Shown here: piece by piece, positions 1 to 26,107 of the stretch | Layout: each line of letters starts with the position of its first letter | How positions within the stretch are numbered: position 1 is the first letter of the stretch | Assembly: GCA_965219445.1 (NCBI GenBank) | Contig: CBDCNQ010000004.1 | Coordinates: 1-64,000, forward strand | Direction of reading: 5' to 3' | Length of the DNA stretch: 64,000 nt | Source: Longimicrobiales bacterium | Lineage (GTDB): Bacteria > Gemmatimonadota > Gemmatimonadetes > Longimicrobiales > Gaopeijiaceae | The notes under the pieces: model-generated | What the model was told of the DNA's origin: nothing | The model's database searches: none | The model's input: the letters and a program-made list of their open reading frames with translations, nothing else | Program-made: the position numbers and the translations under genes

Positions 1-795
1 CGTCCTCGCGTTGGCCCGAATCGTCCGAGGTGTCCGTCCGTACTTGCTGGTCCGCACCCCCCGCTCCCCCCGACTCCTTCACACCGGTCTCTACCTGAGC
101 AGTACCTGGATCGTTTGATTCGGCCGAGGCCTGTTGTTCTTGATCACGCGGGTCTGGCTGTCCCCGCCCATCGTTGGGTGAATTACTGTCCACTGTTTTG
201 GATTTCCTTATGTGGGCCTGCGCGCTCGGCGGGCCTGAAACTACTGCCTACAAAATGGAACGAGAGAAGCCGGCTTCTCATCCCGCTGCGACGTATGCAA
301 CGTCTGAACACCGAGATACGCCACCGACATTTTCAGGCCGAAAAGGATCCTGCCCCGGCTGTCTTGGGGCAGCTCGTCCATCGCCTGAGCCCAGGCTCGG
401 CTCTCGCCGCACGGGCATTTCCCACGGCCGAAGCCATGGAAGGACGGTGTCCGAGGTTGGAACGACTAGAGTTCGGCCTGTTGAATCGAAGACCTTCGTT
501 CCGGGCACCCGATTGGGTGCACCATTAATTTCCGCTCTTTCTGTCTCCGGGGCAAGGGTGTTGAACATCGGACACACCGAGGTCGGAGTGCATGACACGA
601 GTGCTCCCGTAGGTCCAACCACCCTGTCACGTGGTACCGGCGCGGAGTCCGTCCTCGTGCGAGGACAGGCCAGCTCGGGCCACACCGGCCCTTATGGCCG
701 TTTGCCCGCAACAAATATAAGTTTCTCGGCTGTGGGAGGTCCGATGGCACGGCCTATGCAACTGATCGGAGCAGGATCTCCCAAGGAGGACATCG

Positions 796-16217: not shown

Positions 16218-16700
16218 GCCTCACCTCCGAAGATCCGCCGCCAGATCGTGTCGTCGGTTGCGTGGCTAAACTGCGCCGGACCGGCGATCCGCCGCGATTT
16301 GGCGATATGGCTGGGCTGCTCGGCGGGCCAGATCGTGCGCGTCCCGCCACCGATGCCCTTGCCGTCTTCCGACACCACGTCATAGCCGAGAAACAGCACA
16401 TGGTCGGCCCACTGAACGACCCGGTTGCGGATCGACGCCTTGCCCGAGCGCGGCCGCTGTAGATGCGGCTCGTAGCGAATCCAGTCGTCTCCGGTCGGAT
16501 TCGGTACGCTCTCGATGCAGTCATGCGCGATCAGGACCACGTTGCGGCCCGCCCGCACTTGCCGGTCCAGGTCCGCGAGCAACAGCAGAAACGTGTCGTA
16601 GACGTGCTGGTAGCCTTTGCCGAATCCGTAGCCCTCGATGCTGGAGACCGTCGCCCCTTTCTCGTGCTTCACGGTTTCGAGCGTGTGGGCGATCGCAAGC
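16214..16700 (-). pseudogene. Sak4/AAA_24-like ATPase, 5'-truncated
   Basis: SIEGYGFGKGY, VVLIAH, WADHVLF and HIAKSR motifs. The Walker A half is missing and the frame stops at ~16702. Confidence 0.75.
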
Positions 16701-16770
16701 TAGTACTTTTTCGTGCAACGTTTCACCAGCCGCTATCCCCTCGAAGCGGTGAACAGGGAGAGGGTGCCCA

Positions 16771-17172
16771 ATGACCGCAGCAATCTCTAGCGCATCCTTA
16801 GCCGTCTACACCTTTCTTTTGCCTATAGCCCAAGTGAGTCTGGTAGTCGCGGTGCTGATCCTTGTCCCGATGGCATTTTTTCAGGGCACCAAGAAACCAG
16901 CGGGCGTGGGTCTTCTTTGGGCATCCTACCTCTTGGGAGCAACCACCTGGACCCTCGGCGCGGCAATCACTTTTAGCATCTATAGTTGGTTGGGTCTGGC
17001 GGTGGGGATGTTGTTTTTCGGGGTGGGAGTTGTGGCACTCGCTATCGTTGGAAGTGTCTTCGTGATTAAGTCCGCCAGCATGGCTATTTCGCTAATCGTT
17101 ATGGCCATTTTAGTGTGGGGTTTTCGTGCTTGGGGGGTTGCCCTGATGATAGCGCTCCCAGGCGGCGAATAA
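16771..17172 (+). CDS. 4-TM membrane protein (moron-like)
   Basis: RBS GGAGAGG; hydrophobic; lower GC; opposite strand to the other phage genes. Confidence 0.7.
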   Translation: MTAAISSASLAVYTFLLPIAQVSLVVAVLILVPMAFFQGTKKPAGVGLLWASYLLGATTWTLGAAITFSIYSWLGLAVGMLFFGVGVVALAIVGSVFVIKSASMAISLIVMAILVWGFRAWGVALMIALPGGE

Positions 17173-17381
17173 AGGGGGCACCGTGTCTGGGGTGTATTGG
17201 GGAGGCGTCATCATCGTTGGCGGTGCCGCTTTTCTTCGGCACCTGGATTTATGCAGCGATGACCTACGGGGTGTTTCTCGGCATCGGGCTCGGATGGATT
17301 CCGACCATCGTTGTCGGAGTGGTGGCGGGGCTGGTTTGGCCGCTTTTCGCTCTCGTTGCGGTAGCCCCCAGCGGACCATAG
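17115..17381 (+). CDS. Small membrane protein (start uncertain)
   Basis: Hydrophobic C-terminal ~55 aa. Confidence 0.45.
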   Translation: MGFSCLGGCPDDSAPRRRIKGAPCLGCIGEASSSLAVPLFFGTWIYAAMTYGVFLGIGLGWIPTIVVGVVAGLVWPLFALVAVAPSGP

Positions 17382-17450
17382 GGCGGGGCTCAAAAAAATG
17401 GCGACTATACACTTGACGACACCCATCACAGGGTGCAAAAAAATATAAGG

Positions 17451-17491
17451 AAATAAGAAAAGGGGCCGCGCCGTTTCTGACGTGACCCCTT
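17451..17491 (-). terminator. Rho-independent terminator of the antisense sRNA/tRNA unit
   Basis: GGGGTCACGTC-loop-GGCGCGGCCCC followed by TTTTCTTATTT on the minus strand. Confidence 0.75.
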
Positions 17492-17525
17492 CAGTGTGGC
17501 AGAACCACACTCTAACTTCGCAAGT
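17455..17525 (-). ncRNA. Putative anti-tRNA small RNA (~70 nt)
   Basis: Begins ACUUGCGAAGUUAGAGUGU, the perfect complement of the tRNA segment at 17623-17641; has its own promoter and terminator. Confidence 0.7.
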
Positions 17526-17531
17526 ACCTAT

Positions 17532-17560
17532 AGTATCGGCGGAAAGCTGCTCCTGGTCAA
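17532..17560 (-). promoter_or_regulatory. sigma70 promoter of the antisense sRNA
   Basis: TTGACC-17 bp-GATACT; predicted +1 at 17525, the first antisense base. Confidence 0.65.
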
Positions 17561-17576
17561 GTAAGAATGCCAGCCG

Positions 17577-17663
17577 TGGTGCCCGGGGCGGGATTCGAAC
17601 CCGCACGACCCGAAGGCCACTAACTTGCGAAGTTAGAGTGTCTACCAGTTCCACCACCCGGGC
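17577..17663 (-). tRNA. tRNA with Leu-type body and Ala anticodon CGC (predicted mistranslating tRNA)
   Basis: GCCCGGG TG GTGGAACTGGTAGACAC T CTAAC-TTCGCAA-GTTAG TGGCCTTCGGGTCGT GCGGG-TTCGAAT-CCCGC CCCGGGC A CCA. All stems pair; long variable arm, A73, no G3:U70. Confidence 0.9.
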
Positions 17664-17739
17664 ACCTAAACAAAGCGGGCGTCGTCGTCGTCGACACAAC
17701 TCGCAAGCTATTCAGTCCGCGATGATGGCTGACCTATTG

Positions 17740-17768
17740 AGGCTAGATAAACCTGGGCTTGGGGTCAA
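17740..17768 (-). promoter_or_regulatory. sigma70 promoter of the tRNA
   Basis: TTGACC-17 bp-TAGCCT, giving a ~70-nt leader. Confidence 0.6.
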
Positions 17769-17775
17769 CCGACAT

Positions 17776-18459
17776 CTAGCGCACCACCCACACCACCGCG
17801 ACACCTGTACCGAGACCTCTCATGAAGCTCCCGACGTGCCCGAAGAAGCCGCTAGGCAGCGCGTCCCGGAGGAACCCGATCTCCTCTTCGTAGAGCCGGT
17901 TCGACTCGGCGAGGATGGCTTTCTCGGCTCGCTCGGTCGCCAGATTCCGTTCCAGCAAGACGATGGCGAACGAGTCTGCTTGATGGAGGGCCGTAGCCCC
18001 GAGTAGCTGTTCCCGGAACGCTTCGCGGACGCTCTGCTCCGCTGCCTGCTCCTCCCGGTGCTGCGCCTGAGCGATCTCGACCAACGGACGGAGCTCGGGA
18101 CGTACGACGGCATAGAGGCTGTCGTGGGTCGCGTCGAGGTCGGTGCCTGCCTGAGCGGCGCGCTCGGAGGCATCGGTCTCCTGTTGCTCGGCTTGCGCGA
18201 TCATCTCACGGGCCTGGACGCGCTCGATTCGTAGAGAATCCCGCACCTGTTCGAGCTCAAGCGAATCGGCACGGGTGCGCGCACTCGCGTCACGGAGTTG
18301 CACCTGGAGCTGTGCCTGATCTTCGGCCCGGTCGTCAGCAAGCGCTTTCGCCACGGCGAGATCGGACAGCGCGCCTTGGAGCCACCAGCCGAGGACGCCG
18401 AGCGCTACGATCATGATGAGCTCGCCGGGCAGACGAACGCGGGTGAGCCAGTCGTTCAT
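17776..18459 (-). CDS. Rz/i-spanin-like coiled-coil membrane protein
   Basis: N-terminal TM and long coiled coil; end of the lysis cassette. Confidence 0.55.
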   Translation of the reverse strand: MNDWLTRVRLPGELIMIVALGVLGWWLQGALSDLAVAKALADDRAEDQAQLQVQLRDASARTRADSLELEQVRDSLRIERVQAREMIAQAEQQETDASERAAQAGTDLDATHDSLYAVVRPELRPLVEIAQAQHREEQAAEQSVREAFREQLLGATALHQADSFAIVLLERNLATERAEKAILAESNRLYEEEIGFLRDALPSGFFGHVGSFMRGLGTGVAVVWVVR

Positions 18460-18914
18460 CGCGGCGCCAACGGTATTGGCCTGATCTCGCACTCTGCGAA
18501 GCGGGGGTCGTCATGATCACCACCACCGAGCAAATCGTGGATCGCTTCGTGGCTTACCACGACAGGGTCATTCACCGTGCGCCGGTCGAGCAGGATCTCG
18601 CGGGGCAGGGGAGCGGCCCAGCCTCCGAATTTTCGGCCTAGCGTCTCTACGTCGAGCAAAAAGTCCACGACCGACCAATTAATCGCGAAGAAGTCGCCTT
18701 CCAGACCCGTACACTCCTCCATCAGCGAATAGATGTAGGCGTGCATCGTGGTCGGATAGAACTGGATCCTGTTCCAGTAGCGCACCTCGGTCCAGCCCGT
18801 TTCGGTCGACGCCGAGGGGGGCGCCACGCGCAGCACGGGGGACGGCAGAGCAGATCCCGTGCAAGCAGCGAGCATGGACAGCGCGAGTCCGACGCAGAGG
18901 ATGCGCCGGATCAT
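18456..18914 (-). CDS. Phage lipoprotein with HExxH motif
   Basis: Lipobox LAAC; HEAIH. Confidence 0.6.
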   Translation of the reverse strand: MIRRILCVGLALSMLAACTGSALPSPVLRVAPPSASTETGWTEVRYWNRIQFYPTTMHAYIYSLMEECTGLEGDFFAINWSVVDFLLDVETLGRKFGGWAAPLPREILLDRRTVNDPVVVSHEAIHDLLGGGDHDDPRFAECEIRPIPLAPR

Positions 18915-19459
18915 GCCCTCGACACCTTGGGCAACAGCTGGCGGATGTCGTCGACGGACAGGATCGGGTTGTTCGGGTCGGTGCCTTCGGGATCAGTCTT
19001 GCGGCCGCGTGGCCAAGCTTCGCTGGAGTGGCCGACGATGCGCCACGTGTCTCTGAGGTTCCAGCCGTGTTTCTCGTAGTAGATGCGGCAGAGCAGGGCC
19101 ATGGTGAGCATCTGTAGCGGGGTGACGTCGTGTTTTCCGCTGGAAGCGATCGCGATGCCGTAGAACGCCGAGTTGGCGTCGCCGTAGTGGAGCCTGGCCG
19201 GGTCTGAGGGCCTACAGCGGCCCGCATGCCACGCCCGGGCGCTGTCGGGCGCTATGCGTACGTAGGAGCCGTCGTCGAGGATTAGGAGGTTGTAGCTCAC
19301 GTGGCAGCGCGGATCGCCGAACCACTGCATCGAGCCGCGGTCGGATCCGCTCCCGTCGTAGTGGAGAAGGATGCCCTGGCGGTCCTCGCGGAGCGTTCCG
19401 TAACGCTGGTTCAGGATCTCGCCCGTGAGCGTCGGCGTCCAGACGAGCTGCCCGGTCAT
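18911..19459 (-). CDS. N-acetylmuramoyl-L-alanine amidase (endolysin)
   Basis: ILLHY, AWHAG, IVGH and KTDP Amidase_2-type motifs. Confidence 0.88.
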   Translation of the reverse strand: MTGQLVWTPTLTGEILNQRYGTLREDRQGILLHYDGSGSDRGSMQWFGDPRCHVSYNLLILDDGSYVRIAPDSARAWHAGRCRPSDPARLHYGDANSAFYGIAIASSGKHDVTPLQMLTMALLCRIYYEKHGWNLRDTWRIVGHSSEAWPRGRKTDPEGTDPNNPILSVDDIRQLLPKVSRA

Positions 19460-19758
19460 CGCTCGTCGTCCTTGAACCGGTCGTCGGTGCCGGCGTTGCG
19501 GCGTGCGGCAGCCGCGACGGCCGCTGCGACACCGCCGAGCTGTGGGCCGACATACTGGGCGATCCGCGGCCCGGCGGCCCAAGCCAGCAGCCCCGTGCAG
19601 ACCGTTCCCATGAGTGCGTACGCGGGGCCGGGCACGTTCCAGGCCAGCGAGTCCAGCACGATCAGCGCACCGGCGAAGAGCAGCGCGCCGATCAGCAGCA
19701 ACCTTGCCGAGGATCTGGAGCCGCGCTCATCGTGGAGGAACCCCGGTTCCTGGCTCAT
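19456..19758 (-). CDS. Holin-like 2-TM protein
   Basis: Two TMs; directly upstream of the endolysin. Confidence 0.6.
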   Translation of the reverse strand: MSQEPGFLHDERGSRSSARLLLIGALLFAGALIVLDSLAWNVPGPAYALMGTVCTGLLAWAAGPRIAQYVGPQLGGVAAAVAAAARRNAGTDDRFKDDER

Positions 19759-20283
19759 GACCCGTTACTCCCGCCCAACCACGGCACTGACTTCATCCTG
19801 AGCTTCGCCGACTTGATGAAGAACTGTGCGTTACCCTGAAACGAGATCGCCTCCTCCCAGAACATCGCGACGGTGACCGTCATGATGAGCTTTCCGGCCG
19901 GATCCCAGCCGAGGATCTCGAAGGTCATGCCTTCGATGAACGCCGCCATGATGACCACGAGGAAGATCACGAGCAGCTTCAGGACCCCATTCCTGGCTTT
20001 GTCGGCGCGCAGCTTCACCTTTCGGATCCGCAATCGCACGTAGCACTCCGGTCGCCCAGTCGACGCCCCACGCGCCGAGCAGGAACCAGAACGGAATGCC
20101 GAACGCGCCCTGCATCTGCGCGAGCACGGCCACGAGCGCGCCCATCCCGACCTTCGGGACGAGCGAATGCGTGACGGTATCCTGGACGTAGTGGCCGAAA
20201 TAGACGAAGAACGACTGCGCGGTGTTGATCTCCTTGCTGCCGTCAATCGGTCCGACCCATGTTCCTTCGCCTAGAACGTACAT
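19755..20283 (-). pseudogene. Phage holin (holin_4_1-like) with a frameshift at ~20020
   Basis: DWATGVLRAIADPK continues in another frame as VKLRADKARNGVLKLL...EEAIS. Confidence 0.65.
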
Positions 20284-20395: not shown

Positions 20396-23300
20396 TCACC
20401 TCTCGGAGCGCCGTCGGGTGGTGTCCTGCCCAGCATTGCGCTGTCTCCGCTGCGCGTCTAAGAACAACAACTGACCGACGCGATTGGCACCGCCGGTCCC
20501 TGCCTGCTGCCCCGACGTCTCACGCCAATCCGGGGTGTAGCCGGCCAAGGGGTCCTCGTTGGGAAGGGAACCAATGCGGTCTATGCGGTTGGGTGTCTGT
20601 TTGCGCTCTTGCTCGCGGCGCGTGCGCTCGCGCTGTGTTTCCGCCCGGATCCGACCCACACGGAACGGCCCCCTGGCGGGTCGCCCCTCCTCACCGATCT
20701 CCTGGAGCGCGGCCCGGGCCAGCGCGTTCGCTTCGGTGCTCAACGTCCTACGATCATTCACCGAGGGTGTGAAGCGGCGCACGTAGGACAATGCCGTGAC
20801 GGCTTTTGATGCGTCCGCGAGCAGCAGGCGCTTCTCGCGCTGGACGGCGCTCTCTTCACGCACATTGGAGCTCTGAATCTTCTGAGCGGCTTCCAGCGCA
20901 TCGTACAGCTCGTCGATCGAGCGAGAGCGGGTCGTGCCACCGCGCACGAACAGGCGCCCGAATATGGGCGTATCGGCCAACTCGTTCTCGCGCTCGATGC
21001 CCGCCGCTCCAAGCCCGACGAGTTCTACCAAATCGGAGCCGACCGGCCCGAACATTCCCCTGATGCCGTGATCGATACGTCTGGGCGATACCTTGAATAT
21101 CTGGCCCATCGTGATCGCGGCTCGGCTCGTGAACTCGTTGAACTGTTCCTCAGCGGGAAGATTCTGTTGGCCACGCGGAACGATCGGCGTGTCGAAGAAC
21201 GTGTCTCGGTTCGCGCCTTGCTCGTAAATCTCCTCCAACCCCGGCGGCGTGAGGGGCGGCACCATCGTCTGAAGCGCGACTTTCATAAACGCGATCGCGC
21301 TCTTTCGATCGTTCAAATACCACGCATCGAGCAGCATCTCTGGGAACGCACTAAAGACGTAGCCGACCTCGAAACCTCGCGGGATCCGCACGAGCTCCTC
21401 ACGTCCATCCGGCAGTGTGACGGAGAAATGCCAGTGCAAGAACTTCTCGCGGGAGTCCATCTCCTTCCACCACTCTTCGTCCTTGTTCCGCCACCACAGG
21501 AGCAGTGTCGCGGCCGTGAGTTGGAGCCCACGTAGCGCGAATTTCTGCAGGTTTCGTTTCCCGGCACGCAGGTTCGCGCGCGGGCCCTGGATCGCGGCGT
21601 TGTGGAACGGCACCATGCGGTTCGCCGCACGGCTGAACTCGCCAGCGGCGGTGAAGTCGGTCGTCACCTGTTTGGCGGCGAGCAAGAGACGGAACGACTG
21701 ATCGACGGTCATCGGCTCGCCAGGCTGCCACCCGATTTCTGCGGACAACAGCTTGAGTTCGGCCACACGCGGCGCCGATTCAGGGGCCTGCACGAGGTCC
21801 CGATACCAGTCGAACCAATTCCTTGGATCGAGTGTGCGTGCTGTACGGCCGTGGAACAGCCGACGAGCGGCGCGACTGGCTTGTGGTAGGTCCTGGCCGA
21901 GCGGTTGCGCCATCTCGCCACCGAGCCGCACGAAGGCGTCCAGATATTCACTGCGCCGCCCGACGGTCCTGTCCAGCGCCGCATCGGTCATCGCACCGAG
22001 CCACGTAGCCAGCAGCCTTGGCCCGGCAGCCGACGTCTGTGTGTTCACCCACATCGTTTGTGCGTCGCGGATCGGATTCCACAGCAGACCGAACGATGCA
22101 CGGAGGCCGGTGGTGCCTGCCCTAAAGATTTCGGCGCTCTTGCCGAGCGTCGCCTCAAGGATTCCTAGGCCGGCGACTTGCGGCAAGCGGTAGACGTCGA
22201 GTGCCGAGAGCGCACCGAACAACTTGGCGTCTACCTGAAACCACCGGATTTTCTCGCCGTCCCGCAGCGGAACGATCGGATCGGCGCCACTCGGTCGGTC
22301 CTTGGGCACGAAGAAGGTGACCGCTTCGTTGAAAACTTCCAGCGTCTCATCATTGACGGGGCCCGGGTCTGTTTCGAGCCCGACGCCCTCGCGCGCGAGG
22401 CGCTTCTTGAGTTGGTCCAAGAGTTGACCGATCGTGCGTGTCGCACCCGGCACCATCTCGGGCGGCACCTCTTCGATCAGGCCGCCCATGCCTTCGATGC
22501 TGCTCAAGCGGATGATCTGGTCGATGACCATTCGGTGATGGGCAGCACGTAGGGTCGAGGACGCCTGCGAGATCATAACGGGGAACGGGTCTTTGATCCT
22601 GCGACCGCTGCCCTTGAGACGCTTCACCGGACTGCGAGTAGTCGCGCCTCCCTTCTGCGCTGCGCGGCCCCACAGATCGTCGATCTCATCGAACATCCGT
22701 TGCAGCGGCACGTAGTCGCCAGGATCCCGCTCGCGCACCTTCGAGACGATTTGACGGAACGAGGGCGACGCCTGAGCGGCGTAATTCAGCACCCCATCGT
22801 TCCACTCGTAAACGATTTGGGCGCCCTGCGCGAATCTGGGGTTTTCCAGTTCGGATATGATCTGTTCGGCATCGATGAGCGAGAGCCCTGGGTTGCGAGC
22901 GCCCTGTGGATCGTTCCACAACGCCCTGGCGCGCCTGGCCCATAGATAGATCGTGAAATCCTCGCGCTCTAAGGGCCGAATCATCGCCTCGATCGAGTTC
23001 AGCGGTTGACCCACCTTATTGCCAGCCAGGTCGATCATCGCGTTCTCGACCATGTAGCGTGTACGAGCGGTATGCGTCGTTCTGAGCGCCGAGAGCGTTA
23101 AGGATGGATCCTGTGACGGAGCCAGCGGACGTTCAAGCTTGCGCTGTGCCTCGGCCGAGAACTCAGCGATCGGCTGCGCCATATCGACGAGATTCTCCAT
23201 GCTGAAGAACCGCCTCACTCCTTTGCCGGCCCTCCCTATGCGCTCACGCAGACTGCCCGTGTCCGCCATGCTCGCCACCGCACGTTGCCGGCTGCCCTGA

Positions 23301-26107
23301 TCGCCGTAGCGCGTGGTAGCGTCCCGAGCCGATTCCATCGCCTTACGAACCTTCGGTTGACCGGCTAGAAACGAACCATCGAACCACTCCGCGAAGGTCG
23401 GGGCCACGCGCAAAGATTCTTCGTCCGACGTGATCCACGCCCGAACGAACTCGGCGAACCCTTCGCGCTTGTATCCACCAACGGGCTTGCTCTCGCCGTA
23501 CAGACGGAAACCGAGTTGCCTGAGCTCCCTCTGCATCTTCCCGGTAACGCCCGCTATGGAGCCTTTCCAAGGCCCACCCTTCGGCCAACCGTAGATAACT
23601 TTCTCGATCGCGTGCGCGACCTCGTGTGCTGCGGTCGGGATGTCGTTCGCCTCGCGCGTCCTGATAACCTCGGGGCGCACTTTGAAAATGCCGAGCGCAC
23701 GACGTTGTCCTATCCGACCACTACGCAGCGGTAGCGCGCGACCCGCCGCCTCGGTGATCTTGGCCATCGCGCCGATGACGGCCGGCGCCGACACGGGACC
23801 GCTCGCGGCTACGTCGACAGCCGGCGTCAGGCGTCCCTTCAGGCTCGGATAGATCGTAACCCGTTCGTCCTCGTCCACGAGCGGATCCGTCGGAGGTACG
23901 ATCCTCGCACTCGTCGGTACCGAACTCGCTGTGCCCGTGGCGGTGGGGGCAGGATAGAACTGTGTGCCGGCGGGACCGCCGAAATCGTCGGAGATGTCAC
24001 CCGACGCAGCCGGAACTTCTTCGTCGATCCCACGCGCTCGCGCCTCGCCGGCGTAAAGCGTGCGGCGCACAGCAGCAGTTGTAGAGCCCAGGTCGCTGAG
24101 TGCTTCCACCTCGGCACGAACAAGACGCTCGATAACCTCTGAGTCGGTTAGATCGGAAAGCTCAAGGAACTCGGCACGAACACCGACTGGCACGTTCCCG
24201 GCCCTGACGTATCGGTATGCGTCATCGAAATCGGGCAGCTCGATCTCACGACGACGGAGCTCGTTCTCGTACGCGACCCGACGATGCCCTGCTTGCGTCA
24301 GCCGGCCACGTGCGAACGAGCCTTTGCCGGTGCCCGCAACGCCCTTGATCCCGGCGTTATCGAACACGCGGATCCCCGGTCCCGCTTCGTTGGCCTCCGC
24401 CTCGGTCTCCGCAGACTGCCGCAGGGTCGCACGGTATCGGGCCGCAAGTTCCTCGTCGGTAAGACTCTTCGCTATCTGTGTGGCCTTCTCGAACACCGCG
24501 CCCGCGCCTGCCGGCCTTACGTCGTCGCTTGCGACCTCGCCCGCCCGCGGCCCAATCGCTTCGGCGACCGGGAGAGCGTCGTCCTGCGGGATTGATTCGA
24601 TCGGAACGCCAGAGTCGTCTAGCTTCACCTCAGGGCCAATAGTGATCTTGTCTGTGCGTTCCTGCGGGATCTGGACGTCACCTCTACGAGAGCTTGCACC
24701 GGCAGCCGAGGCACCCGCTACCGATCCGACCAGCGCACCGATGGCGCCCGCACCCTTCATGCGCTCACCGATGTCCCTCAGCGCTTCGGGATCCTTGGTC
24801 GCTACGAACTGCGTAGTGGCCTGGAATGCTTCCTGCACCGCTTCGGTGACGCCCTCAGCGATGAGCCCCGAGCCCGCACGGCGCGCGACGTTCGGGATGA
24901 GCTCCATGAATTTGCTACGGAAGAACGCCTGAGCGCCCGGCACGCGATCGAACAGGATCACGGCACCCGGGATCGCTTCCAGCACGGCGGAACCAAGGCC
25001 AACGACCGCCGCGACGCCGGCAGCCGTCCGTTCGGCCTCTTCGGCGCTCGCGCCCTGTCTGAGCGCCATCGCTTTCGTTTCCTCGAACGAGCCGCCGCCC
25101 TCAAGAACAAGGTTCGGGGCTGCGAACGCGGCGAGCCTGAGCGCTGGCGATCCCGGCACCGCGAGAGCGAGCCCAACCTGAGAGCCGAGCTGCAAGAACC
25201 CTTCGCCGCCACGGGCGAGCCACCAGCGTGGATTCGATGGGTCGAACGCGCCACCGGCTTGCACCGACAGACTCGGCGGGTTGCGTTCCTGGATCTCTTG
25301 CCCCGCGGACGATAATGAGCGCCCTGGGCGCTTGAGCGGGGGCACAACCTGCCCGATCGTTCGCAGCGTACCGCCTACACCCTCAGTGGCTTGTCCACCA
25401 AAACGCTTCGCGGTACGTGCCATCTCCGTACTGAGCGGTAGATCGGGCTTCAGTGCACCGGTTAGCTCCATGCCCGGTGGCGGAGCGTCCCCGAACTGTG
25501 GATCCCTTAGGCCCAGACGCCGATTGAACTCACGGCCTTGCTCCACGACTCTGCGCATCTGCTCGCCTAAGCGTTCGCGCTCACCTTCAGGCGCTTCGAC
25601 GGCCGGTGGAGTCCGAGCGATTGTTGCGTTTCGTAGGCTTACCGTGTTGTCGCGATCCGCCCGGATCTTTTCGCGCATGAGGTCGAGCGAGGTCGGTCCC
25701 GTGGGTTCCGGCGGCCTGGCAACCCTCGTCGCGTCAGCAGCCGAGTCGGGGGACACCCGCGTTTCCTTCAAGTCGCCCAGTGGGTCGGCGGCGGGCTGCG
25801 GACGAGTCGTAGGCAACGCCACCGCCGTGGCGTCTGCGGCGAGGTCCGGGGACACGGGACGAGGCTCCCTCCGGCCCAAGGTGGCTCGAAGCCTAGCACC
25901 AGCCCGCTGTAGTAGAGAGGGCTGCGGCTTGGCCTGCCGTTCACGCCAGTCGGGTGTATATCCCGCTAACGGGTCCCCGGCCTGTCGGCCCGATGCCTGC
26001 CGTTCACGCCAGTCGGGCGTATAGCCTGCGAGAGGATCCCCCGTCTGTTGCCCTACCTTTTCACGCCAGTCTGGGGTGTAGCCAGCAAGAGGATCGTCAG
26101 GATCCAT
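20396..26107 (-). CDS. Large polyvalent/internal virion protein (LPD38-like C-terminus)
   Basis: 1903 aa; C-terminal VRIPRGFE...ANRDTFFDTPIVP...VSPRRIDH pattern; lies before the lysis genes. Confidence 0.7.
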   Translation of the reverse strand: MDPDDPLAGYTPDWREKVGQQTGDPLAGYTPDWRERQASGRQAGDPLAGYTPDWRERQAKPQPSLLQRAGARLRATLGRREPRPVSPDLAADATAVALPTTRPQPAADPLGDLKETRVSPDSAADATRVARPPEPTGPTSLDLMREKIRADRDNTVSLRNATIARTPPAVEAPEGERERLGEQMRRVVEQGREFNRRLGLRDPQFGDAPPPGMELTGALKPDLPLSTEMARTAKRFGGQATEGVGGTLRTIGQVVPPLKRPGRSLSSAGQEIQERNPPSLSVQAGGAFDPSNPRWWLARGGEGFLQLGSQVGLALAVPGSPALRLAAFAAPNLVLEGGGSFEETKAMALRQGASAEEAERTAAGVAAVVGLGSAVLEAIPGAVILFDRVPGAQAFFRSKFMELIPNVARRAGSGLIAEGVTEAVQEAFQATTQFVATKDPEALRDIGERMKGAGAIGALVGSVAGASAAGASSRRGDVQIPQERTDKITIGPEVKLDDSGVPIESIPQDDALPVAEAIGPRAGEVASDDVRPAGAGAVFEKATQIAKSLTDEELAARYRATLRQSAETEAEANEAGPGIRVFDNAGIKGVAGTGKGSFARGRLTQAGHRRVAYENELRRREIELPDFDDAYRYVRAGNVPVGVRAEFLELSDLTDSEVIERLVRAEVEALSDLGSTTAAVRRTLYAGEARARGIDEEVPAASGDISDDFGGPAGTQFYPAPTATGTASSVPTSARIVPPTDPLVDEDERVTIYPSLKGRLTPAVDVAASGPVSAPAVIGAMAKITEAAGRALPLRSGRIGQRRALGIFKVRPEVIRTREANDIPTAAHEVAHAIEKVIYGWPKGGPWKGSIAGVTGKMQRELRQLGFRLYGESKPVGGYKREGFAEFVRAWITSDEESLRVAPTFAEWFDGSFLAGQPKVRKAMESARDATTRYGDQGSRQRAVASMADTGSLRERIGRAGKGVRRFFSMENLVDMAQPIAEFSAEAQRKLERPLAPSQDPSLTLSALRTTHTARTRYMVENAMIDLAGNKVGQPLNSIEAMIRPLEREDFTIYLWARRARALWNDPQGARNPGLSLIDAEQIISELENPRFAQGAQIVYEWNDGVLNYAAQASPSFRQIVSKVRERDPGDYVPLQRMFDEIDDLWGRAAQKGGATTRSPVKRLKGSGRRIKDPFPVMISQASSTLRAAHHRMVIDQIIRLSSIEGMGGLIEEVPPEMVPGATRTIGQLLDQLKKRLAREGVGLETDPGPVNDETLEVFNEAVTFFVPKDRPSGADPIVPLRDGEKIRWFQVDAKLFGALSALDVYRLPQVAGLGILEATLGKSAEIFRAGTTGLRASFGLLWNPIRDAQTMWVNTQTSAAGPRLLATWLGAMTDAALDRTVGRRSEYLDAFVRLGGEMAQPLGQDLPQASRAARRLFHGRTARTLDPRNWFDWYRDLVQAPESAPRVAELKLLSAEIGWQPGEPMTVDQSFRLLLAAKQVTTDFTAAGEFSRAANRMVPFHNAAIQGPRANLRAGKRNLQKFALRGLQLTAATLLLWWRNKDEEWWKEMDSREKFLHWHFSVTLPDGREELVRIPRGFEVGYVFSAFPEMLLDAWYLNDRKSAIAFMKVALQTMVPPLTPPGLEEIYEQGANRDTFFDTPIVPRGQQNLPAEEQFNEFTSRAAITMGQIFKVSPRRIDHGIRGMFGPVGSDLVELVGLGAAGIERENELADTPIFGRLFVRGGTTRSRSIDELYDALEAAQKIQSSNVREESAVQREKRLLLADASKAVTALSYVRRFTPSVNDRRTLSTEANALARAALQEIGEEGRPARGPFRVGRIRAETQRERTRREQERKQTPNRIDRIGSLPNEDPLAGYTPDWRETSGQQAGTGGANRVGQLLFLDAQRRQRNAGQDTTRRRSER

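Follow-up and report, generated by a model that had tools for sequence, protein, structure and literature searches.

The window analysed here, a stretch of 64,000 nucleotides of contig CBDCNQ010000004.1 from a Longimicrobiales bacterium (the host), carries on its minus strand a gene for an unusual tRNA and, a short distance downstream, a predicted small RNA (sRNA) that is antisense to that tRNA. Comparison with related loci in metagenomes and in genomes of the same phylum shows that the tRNA/antisense pair is a conserved, co-varying module without protein genes. We put at about even the chance that the pair in the window works as a first-pass annotation of this DNA, made from the sequence alone, had suggested: the tRNA would be charged with leucine and insert it at the alanine codon GCG, and the sRNA would neutralise the tRNA by base pairing, the two together serving in a toxin-antitoxin (TA) or abortive-infection role.

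The tRNA and its predicted antisense RNA

The elements of the module in the window are the following.

17577..17663, minus strand: 87-nt type II tRNA with Leu-type body, anticodon CGC, A73, C3-G70 and encoded CCA (ARAGORN, Rfam, comparison with host tRNAs)
17623..17641, minus strand: tRNA segment that can pair with the sRNA, namely the 3' strand of the D-stem, position 26, the 5' strand of the anticodon stem, the anticodon loop and the first bases of the 3' strand (exact 19-mer inverted repeat; tRNA positions 23-41)
17532..17560, minus strand: promoter-like site TTGACC-17-GATACT, predicted to drive the sRNA (consensus scan; equivalent motif in 22 of 23 family loci)
17507..17525, minus strand: predicted seed of the sRNA, 19 nt, perfect complement of the tRNA arm (inverted repeat; family covariation)
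17450..17525, minus strand: predicted sRNA of about 76 nt, with seed, 10-bp hairpin, GC-rich terminator hairpin and U-run (fold; layout present in 22 relatives)

ARAGORN places the 87-nt tRNA with anticodon CGC at 17577-17663(-), and the Rfam tRNA model RF00005 scores it at 55.5 bits (gathering score 29). Comparison with the host tRNAs shows a long variable arm, the discriminator A73 and the D-arm of the host tRNA-Leu genes, that is, the body of a type II tRNA-Leu. A tRNA-Leu would have the anticodon NAG or YAA; the window tRNA has CGC, and the family described below has CGC, GGC, GCC, GTC, GCG, CTC, GGG, GGT or GTG. When a 351-nt query was compared with 61 genomes of related taxa, DNA matches were restricted to the tRNA part, and the nearest DNA relatives, at 19 fetched loci, were 17 tRNA-Leu genes, one locus without a tRNA and one odd tRNA (L012). 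A 20-nt word from the D-arm also occurs in 108 tRNAs of viral contigs, 102 of which have Leu anticodons. Because its relatives are tRNA-Leu genes and its D-arm word belongs to tRNAs with Leu anticodons, the window tRNA is best described as Leu-type in body with an Ala anticodon, which agrees with the first-pass annotation.

Leucyl-tRNA synthetase (LeuRS) ignores the anticodon, and alanyl-tRNA synthetase (AlaRS) depends on the base pair G3:U70 and does not read anticodons either. This pair is C3-G70 in the window tRNA and G3:U70 in all three tRNA-Ala genes of the host, and none of the 23 family members aligned below has G:U at 3:70. The predicted identity features of the window tRNA point to leucine, not to alanine. 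Among the 55 tRNA genes of the host genome is a normal 74-nt tRNA-Ala(CGC), located on a contig other than that of the window, and the 7-nt anticodon loop of this genuine tRNA-Ala(CGC) is identical to that of the window tRNA. The genuine gene belongs to an array in which 17 tRNA genes are packed into 2.4 kb (host contig C3:31920-34298, outside the window), and a second, partial copy of tRNA-Ser(CGA) lies 7 kb beyond this array.

The window contains exactly two copies of the 19-mer of the tRNA arm, one at 17623-17641(-) and one at 17507-17525(+). Even when up to three mismatches are tolerated, these two sites are the sole matches in 64 kb, and two or more matches were found in none of 100 shuffled sequences. 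The perfect complement of the anticodon arm reported in the first-pass annotation is thus an exact inverted repeat; it begins 51 nt beyond the end of the tRNA. The second promoter proposed there, TTGACC-17-GATACT at 17560-17532(-), is the sole promoter-like site in a consensus scan of positions 16500-18800, and its -10 hexamer ends 6 nt ahead of the start of the seed. Past the seed the predicted sRNA has a 10-bp hairpin, which is a shortened antisense copy of the D-arm, followed by a GC-rich hairpin and then UUUUCUUAUUU, in line with the small RNA and terminator proposed earlier. An 86-nt stretch comprising 5 upstream nt and the sRNA folds at -34.1 kcal/mol (z = -4.3); in its minimum free energy structure the first 11 nt, that is, the 5 upstream nt and seed nt 1-6, are unpaired and the remaining seed is mostly paired. 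The sRNA unit has no ATG. No Rfam family matched the sRNA, either in the window at gathering scores or in 19 family loci at E <= 1. No terminator separates the tRNA from the sRNA promoter, and a 296-nt read-through transcript holding both RNAs is predicted to fold with the two segments paired.

A family of related loci

The first-pass annotation had proposed a search for type II tRNAs with a non-cognate anticodon and a nearby, co-varying inverted copy of the anticodon arm, and such loci do exist. Our search pattern combined the Leu D-arm with a following anticodon that has any base but A in the middle (non-A35), with a complement of the arm sought within 300 nt; a pattern tied to this D-arm gives a lower bound on the taxonomic range. 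At least 120 stretches matched in a scan of metagenomes. In a scan of 401 genomes of the phylum, matches were found in nine, including the host genome (G000), a sporadic distribution with at most two loci per genome. Among the matches listed, about 30 loci from metagenomes and same-phylum genomes have the same layout as the window. We aligned 23 loci with the full layout, their anticodons being CGC (11), GCG (3), GTC (2), GGC (2) and GCC, CTC, GGG and GGT (one each), and set the variants L287, L324, L327, L374, L397, L402 and L404 beside them. One relative is L012, from another genus of the same taxonomic family, where an 85-nt tRNA with the same body and the anticodon GTC is followed by TTGACT-17-GATACT and then by a complement of its own arm that includes the altered anticodon.

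The frequency of an antisense sequence over the anticodon differs between anticodons. Counting distinct tRNAs from the window, genomes and metagenomes among the matches listed, it is present in 15 of 15 CGC and 3 of 3 GCG tRNAs, in 3 of 5 GTC, 2 of 6 GGC and 1 of 5 GCC tRNAs, and in 1 of 17 TGG and 1 of 14 TGA tRNAs. Two further GCC loci with insertions in the T-loop have their antisense beyond the 300-nt limit and are not counted. In viral contigs two of 104 pattern matches reach the antisense threshold, with borderline scores; phage GenBank records, and exact or near-exact patterns run on viral contigs, yielded no classical member. A composite pattern that included the promoter hexamers found 21 stretches in genome contigs, 20 of them from metagenome-assembled genomes titled SAR86 or other gammaproteobacteria and one being the same DNA as L012. 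Genome G288 contains a complete CGC module (L414) in addition to a Leu-type tRNA (L407) that is taken up below.

Covariation between the tRNA and the small RNA

We defined 16 intermolecular pairs between tRNA columns 23-38 and sRNA columns 182-197 of a plain MAFFT alignment that was not fitted to structure. Standard pairs occupy 88.5% of the cells, against 64.8% in shuffles, and none of 500 shuffles reaches the observed value, while sliding the partner by 1-3 columns lowers the paired cells to 28-44%. Both sides have changed in 79 cells (24.3 in shuffles), and compensatory changes are found in 11 of the 16 pairs. Covariation extends to the three anticodon columns, in which 8, 6 and 3 double changes are seen. 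Two rows, L408 and L410, are misregistered in the alignment and count against structure. In the 12 inner pairs of the 21 rows that remain without them, the non-Watson-Crick cells are 13 G·U, one A·C and five others (p = 0.0018). Such an excess of G·U over A·C is unexpected for a DNA-level repeat, and we therefore conclude that the pairing takes place at the RNA level, on the strand of the tRNA.

The pairing is also specific to each locus. The sRNA of the same locus is the best partner of the tRNA arm in 21 of 23 loci (-38.1 versus -19.1 kcal/mol); the exceptions are L291, whose own sRNA ranks second behind that of a near-identical relative, and L410, in which the pairing is shifted. When 22 loci were co-folded, the predicted heterodimer was favoured by -20.3 kcal/mol on average, and every one of them formed at least 15, in most cases about 30, intermolecular pairs. 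About 17 different stem pentamers occur among the aligned loci. The sRNA is antisense to almost the entire 5' half of the tRNA, and its first hairpin is an antisense copy of the D-arm in which part of the D-loop is missing. The earlier proposal that the sRNA is directed at the anticodon arm is therefore right as far as it goes, but the complementarity reaches well beyond this arm. The sRNA clearly derives from an inverted copy of the tRNA 5' half from which part of the D-loop was deleted.

Both genes show signs of being maintained. Over the 23 aligned loci 98.7% of cloverleaf cells form pairs, and 17 of the 24 pairs contain compensatory changes; the 7-bp acceptor stem is paired in 100% and the 5-bp T-stem in 99.1% of cells, A73 is present in 23 of 23 loci and C74 is invariant. 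Of 19 loci searched with the Rfam tRNA model, 17 score above the gathering threshold at the expected site. Judging from these patterns, the tRNA is evidently under selection as a tRNA. On the side of the sRNA, 22 of 23 loci have a motif TTGNNN-16..18-NANNNT that ends 9-13 nt ahead of the column paired to A38, and from this fixed position transcription would be expected to start at the seed. The complete sRNAs (22 of 23) fold below shuffled sequence, with z from -2.2 to -7.0, and in 21 of these 22 the single-sequence folds contain a GC-rich hairpin of 9-18 bp that runs into a T-rich stretch. RNAalifold applied to the sRNA regions returned no consensus structure and was set aside, as hairpin lengths vary and MAFFT misregisters them. 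Automatic counts of U-tracts were poor (4/22 and 7/22), the T-run being paired in the folds with an A-tract that precedes it.

The variants depart from the common layout in several ways. L324 (GTC) fell below the first threshold and was recovered later. In L327 (GTG) and L410 (GCG) the sRNA spans the anticodon loop and the variable arm, and in L402 the order is reversed, an sRNA unit with its own terminator preceding the tRNA. In L404 (G151:C82) the 3' half of the tRNA is deleted, so that the tRNA ends after the anticodon loop, and the promoter, seed, hairpin and terminator of the sRNA are kept; this locus looks like an orphan antidote. In L287, L374 and L397 (anticodons CGC, GCC and GCC) the T-loop is interrupted at one common position by an insert of about 40-90 nt; the inserts begin alike, and the sRNA unit is retained downstream. 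Such an insert could represent either a small mobile element that disables the tRNA or an additional arm.

The stretch upstream of the tRNA

Three further features lie ahead of the tRNA in the window.

17740..17768, minus strand: candidate tRNA promoter TTGACC-17-TAGCCT with weak -10 (sequence present; not listed by the scan; not conserved in relatives)
17700..17710, minus strand: degenerate second anti-arm, 11 nt with two G·U pairs, against tRNA positions 33-43 (upstream of the tRNA; weak across the family)
17679..17697, minus strand: terminator-like hairpin after the degenerate second anti-arm (upstream of the tRNA)

The first-pass annotation had assigned the first of these as the promoter of the tRNA. 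The sequence is present as described, but its -10 agrees with the consensus at 3 of 6 positions and the site is absent from the list produced by the consensus scan. We treat this promoter, and the leader of about 70 nt proposed to follow it, as putative. The anti-arm in the upstream leader was considered as a robust locus-specific element and rejected, since its pairing is only weakly locus-specific: own and foreign leaders give -20.4 and -17.8 kcal/mol, and the own leader ranks first in 5 of 23 loci. A degenerate copy of the anti-arm is also found at the equivalent place in L289, L313 and L415. The arrangement suggests that the unit may once have been sRNA-tRNA-sRNA. There is no tRNA match on the opposite strand upstream of the tRNA, as an inverted tRNA pseudogene would give.

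Genomic setting

The module of the window lies in a prophage, at the end of its lysis genes.

17776..20246, minus strand: prophage late/lysis genes upstream of the module (Pfam, PHROGs)
18911-19582, minus strand: amidase endolysin (Pfam, PHROGs)
19755-20246, minus strand: holin (Pfam, PHROGs)

The order is holin, amidase, two proteins of unknown family (238 and 152 aa) and then the RNA module. The genes for Sak4, a clamp and an integrase lie further downstream of the module, and terminases and replication genes lie upstream, which bears out the prophage setting that had been proposed. Immediately upstream of the holin is a prophage protein of 1903 aa that contains the LPD38 domain of large polyvalent proteins (20396-26107(-)). 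A tRNA fragment left at an attachment site would be a direct repeat of the tRNA 3' part beside the integrase; the repeat in the window is inverted, spans the 5' half, and lies 5 kb from the integrase, and such a repeat is also present in settings outside prophages.

At ten other loci the 37 neighbouring proteins belong to unrelated families, none of which is shared. They include one integrase 1.5 kb off, one MazF-type toxin, one Phd antitoxin and one WYL regulator, and are otherwise the products of housekeeping genes. No synthetase is encoded among these 37 proteins or among the 29 open reading frames scanned in the window (11176-36601). Because the neighbours at ten loci share no family, we conclude that the module is self-contained, without a protein partner, and that the prophage is one carrier among several settings. 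Most members of the family lie outside prophages, so that prophage addiction, as envisaged earlier for this locus, would be at best one use of the module.

Proposed mechanism

In the mechanism that we propose, LeuRS would charge the tRNA irrespective of its anticodon, and AlaRS would be unable to do so, G3:U70 being missing. The mischarged tRNA would then compete with the genuine tRNA-Ala(CGC) and poison the proteome at one of the most-used codons. The sRNA of about 76 nt, made in excess, would contact the open anticodon loop and then invade the anticodon stem and the D-arm, and this invasion would unfold the tRNA or expose it to a double-strand RNase. If, following the classical logic of TA systems, the tRNA is stable and the sRNA labile, the tRNA would be left free whenever the element was lost or an infecting phage shut down host transcription, and addiction or abortive infection would result.

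For the family at large we suggest, tentatively and with the balance tilted slightly against it, a new all-RNA TA or abortive-infection module. Here a Leu-charged tRNA would act at the most-used Ala, Asp, Gly, Glu or Arg codons, a cognate anti-tRNA sRNA would unfold it, arm and seed would evolve as a pair, and the module would spread without proteins and would have been picked up in the window by a prophage. Formally, a TA system of this make-up would belong to type VIII (RNA-RNA), in which toxin and antitoxin are both RNAs; in the module both components are non-coding RNAs encoded side by side. We rate the module as a new kind of system, which may be a TA system or a regulator.

Codon usage in the host genome is compatible with this proposal. 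The codons concerned rank high, GAG being first, GCG second, as the first-pass annotation had anticipated in calling it abundant, GCC third, GAC fourth and GGC sixth, while the fifth rank is held by a Leu codon; anticodons that read the commonest codons fit an aim of maximal damage. The predominance of Ala anticodons makes sense if the toxin must escape correct charging, because AlaRS does not read anticodons. Prophage genes show no avoidance of GCG (45.0 per 1000 codons, against 41.8 in the host). A one-sided weapon for shutting off the host is therefore disfavoured; the tRNA would damage both the phage and its host, in keeping with addiction or abortive infection.

Several points weigh against the TA or abortive-infection proposal. 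The anticodons GTC, GCG, GCC, GGG and GGT are recognised by their own synthetases, so that tRNAs bearing them may in part be charged correctly. Because the search pattern itself demanded a Leu-type D-arm of the relatives, independent evidence for their identity comes from A73, the variable arm and the cloverleaf only. The rows of the family are related, and cell counts in the covariation analysis exceed the number of independent events. The majority of loci are found among housekeeping genes and not on recognisable mobile elements. Among the matches listed, most of 109 distinct metagenome Leu-like tRNAs with non-Leu anticodons have no antisense, and L407 (G288:C1:469469-469500) is a well-formed Leu-type tRNA with the Pro anticodon TGG that has no antisense within 600 nt; because such antisense-free examples exist, a non-cognate anticodon on a Leu-like body need not be lethal. 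No conserved promoter for the tRNA itself was recognised in the alignment of family upstream regions, and, with no intervening terminator, read-through transcripts would hold both RNAs, which could pair in cis. A look-up of RNA sequencing runs listed none that contains the window stretch.

Alternative explanations

The same molecular evidence (covariation, cloverleaf and promoter position) would also be produced by regulated mistranslation, in which the tRNA mis-decodes as a stress-inducible source of proteome variation, the sRNA is a tunable off-switch, and no TA system is involved. It would be, to our knowledge, the first case of a bacterial mis-decoding tRNA with an RNA regulator. The many loci in ordinary chromosomal settings agree with it, a palindrome in some sRNA promoter spacers (CTCGGC-N6-GCCGAG) could be an operator, and natural mistranslating tRNAs with proposed benefits are recorded, for which tRNAProX in Streptomyces may be compared in the available text of its description (PMC10404621). 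We still consider regulated mistranslation unlikely. Anticodons that aim at the most-used codons imply maximal damage, not subtle variation; the module is sporadic in the phylum (9/401 genomes, at most two loci in each); and the broken tRNA with an intact sRNA in L404 resembles the dynamics of a selfish module. A tRNA-shaped RNA that acts outside translation, as a stable decoy, sponge or substrate (for instance of a nuclease directed at tRNAs or of a modification enzyme) regulated by the sRNA, or as an antidote to an active sRNA, is quite unlikely. The sRNA seed does match the 7-nt anticodon loop of the host tRNA-Ala(CGC), and tRNAs are common targets in phage-host conflict according to the accessible part of one account (PMC12409363), but seven base pairs with an abundant host tRNA are unlikely to be toxic. 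The seed, moreover, tracks the arm of each locus, leaving no conserved outside target, and a fully paired acceptor stem with invariant A73 and C74 fits an RNA that is aminoacylated.

It is very unlikely that the complement is a purely cis-acting part of the tRNA precursor that controls folding, processing or decay, with no separate small RNA. The lack of a terminator between the tRNA and the complement, the predicted fold of the read-through transcript and the weak second anti-arm upstream of the tRNA would all be accommodated, but not the promoter-like motif that precedes the seed by a fixed distance in 22 of 23 loci, the position of the L402 unit with its own terminator ahead of the tRNA, or the strong hairpin with which each unit closes. 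Finally, the derivation of the sRNA from an inverted copy of the tRNA 5' half is what would be seen after a neutral, partial and inverted duplication of the tRNA, or with a DNA-level inverted repeat such as a recombination site, neither having any function as RNA. This we disfavour as scarcely credible, given that complementarity is kept through some 17 different stem sequences, that G·U exceeds A·C by 13 to 1 and that promoter and terminator are conserved; an inverted repeat of the 5' half is also unlike the duplications found at attachment sites.

Relation to known systems

In Escherichia coli SdsR and RyeA form a type VIII TA system, SdsR being a regulatory sRNA and RyeA a cis-antisense transcript that pairs with it directly. 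In type I TA systems, and in classical antisense control, a short RNA with its own promoter and terminator neutralises the RNA of a neighbouring toxic gene by pairing. The pair described here resembles type VIII systems in that both partners are RNA and no protein gene is present, resembles SdsR/RyeA in that the antitoxin would act by direct base pairing, and resembles type I systems in having a short, possibly labile RNA, with its own promoter and terminator, that would pair with the RNA of its neighbour. It differs from type I systems, whose target is the mRNA of a toxic peptide, as the target here is a tRNA and contains no open reading frame. CreTA is another RNA-RNA TA system, in which, according to the accessible part of its description, the mini-ORF RNA CreT sequesters rare tRNAs and the CRISPR RNA-like guide CreA requires Cascade (PMC8501985). 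CreT would thus be like the proposed toxin in acting on translation through tRNAs, whereas the toxin proposed here, unlike SdsR or CreT, is a mis-decoding tRNA. The proposed antitoxin differs as well, as it is trans-encoded on the same strand with its own promoter, while RyeA is cis-antisense and CreA a Cascade-dependent guide.

Natural bacterial tRNAs of dual identity have been described before. The tRNAProX of Streptomyces and Kitasatospora (tRNAProA/N/T) combine the body of one identity with the anticodon of another, are toxic when expressed in E. coli, and are encoded beside a dedicated isoform of ProRS (PMC10404621, available text). They share dual identity with the window tRNA, but have Pro identity and a dedicated ProRS, whereas the present family has a Leu-type body and no conserved protein neighbour; the words 'antisense', 'small RNA' and 'toxin' do not occur in the available text of that paper. 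The allo-tRNAs of soil bacteria are irregular and have non-cognate anticodons; they are often found close to TA loci, and some of them kill E. coli (PMC5389517, in the part available). Like the present tRNAs they have non-cognate anticodons, but in the accessible text they are of Ser identity with an 8/4 or 9/3 acceptor/T-stem geometry (PMC5389517, PMC7609411), whereas the present family has the canonical 7/5 geometry and a Leu-type body; 'antisense' does not occur in the accessible text of either paper. A full-text search, which left out subscription-only papers and supplements, found no paper on a tRNA with a dedicated antisense small RNA or on a tRNA as the toxin of a TA system. The first-pass annotation knew of no described TA class with this layout, and in the literature searched this holds for a tRNA toxin, but not for the all-RNA class as such, which exists as type VIII.

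If the proposed mechanism is right, a tRNA can serve as a TA toxin, for which there is no record in the literature searched. A dedicated bacterial small RNA that silences one tRNA through its anticodon arm would be a natural, programmable off-switch for tRNAs, and the module would represent a protein-free addiction or defence system invisible to defence finders that are based on proteins. The family provides a set of natural, mutually orthogonal tRNA/anti-tRNA pairs, the own partner being preferred in 21 of 23 loci, and such pairs could help to study or control mistranslation in laboratory strains.

Additional observations

On an AT-rich viral contig of 76 kb (L185), a Leu-type tRNA with the Gly anticodon GCC is followed about 48 nt downstream by a 20-nt complement to the 3' side of the anticodon loop, the 3' strand of the stem and the variable arm (tRNA 36-55). 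We left it out of the family, as it has no clear promoter; it may represent the same principle, either arrived at independently or distantly related.

The sRNA promoter of family members often reads TTGACTCGGC. The palindrome CTCGGC-N6-GCCGAG mentioned above is contained in the spacer of the sRNA promoter in L289, L295, L319, L372 and L373, and could be the operator of a repressor or, in read-through transcripts from the tRNA, a 3'-terminal hairpin. A skipping-rope RNA (Rfam RF02924, 45.1 bits, gathering score 36.7) follows directly after the sRNA terminator of the CTC module, at L415:1340-1423(+). In the related metagenome loci L372, L373, L374 and L397 the modules are flanked by tandem 8-nt repeats with units such as GTGCCCCT or GGTACGCC.

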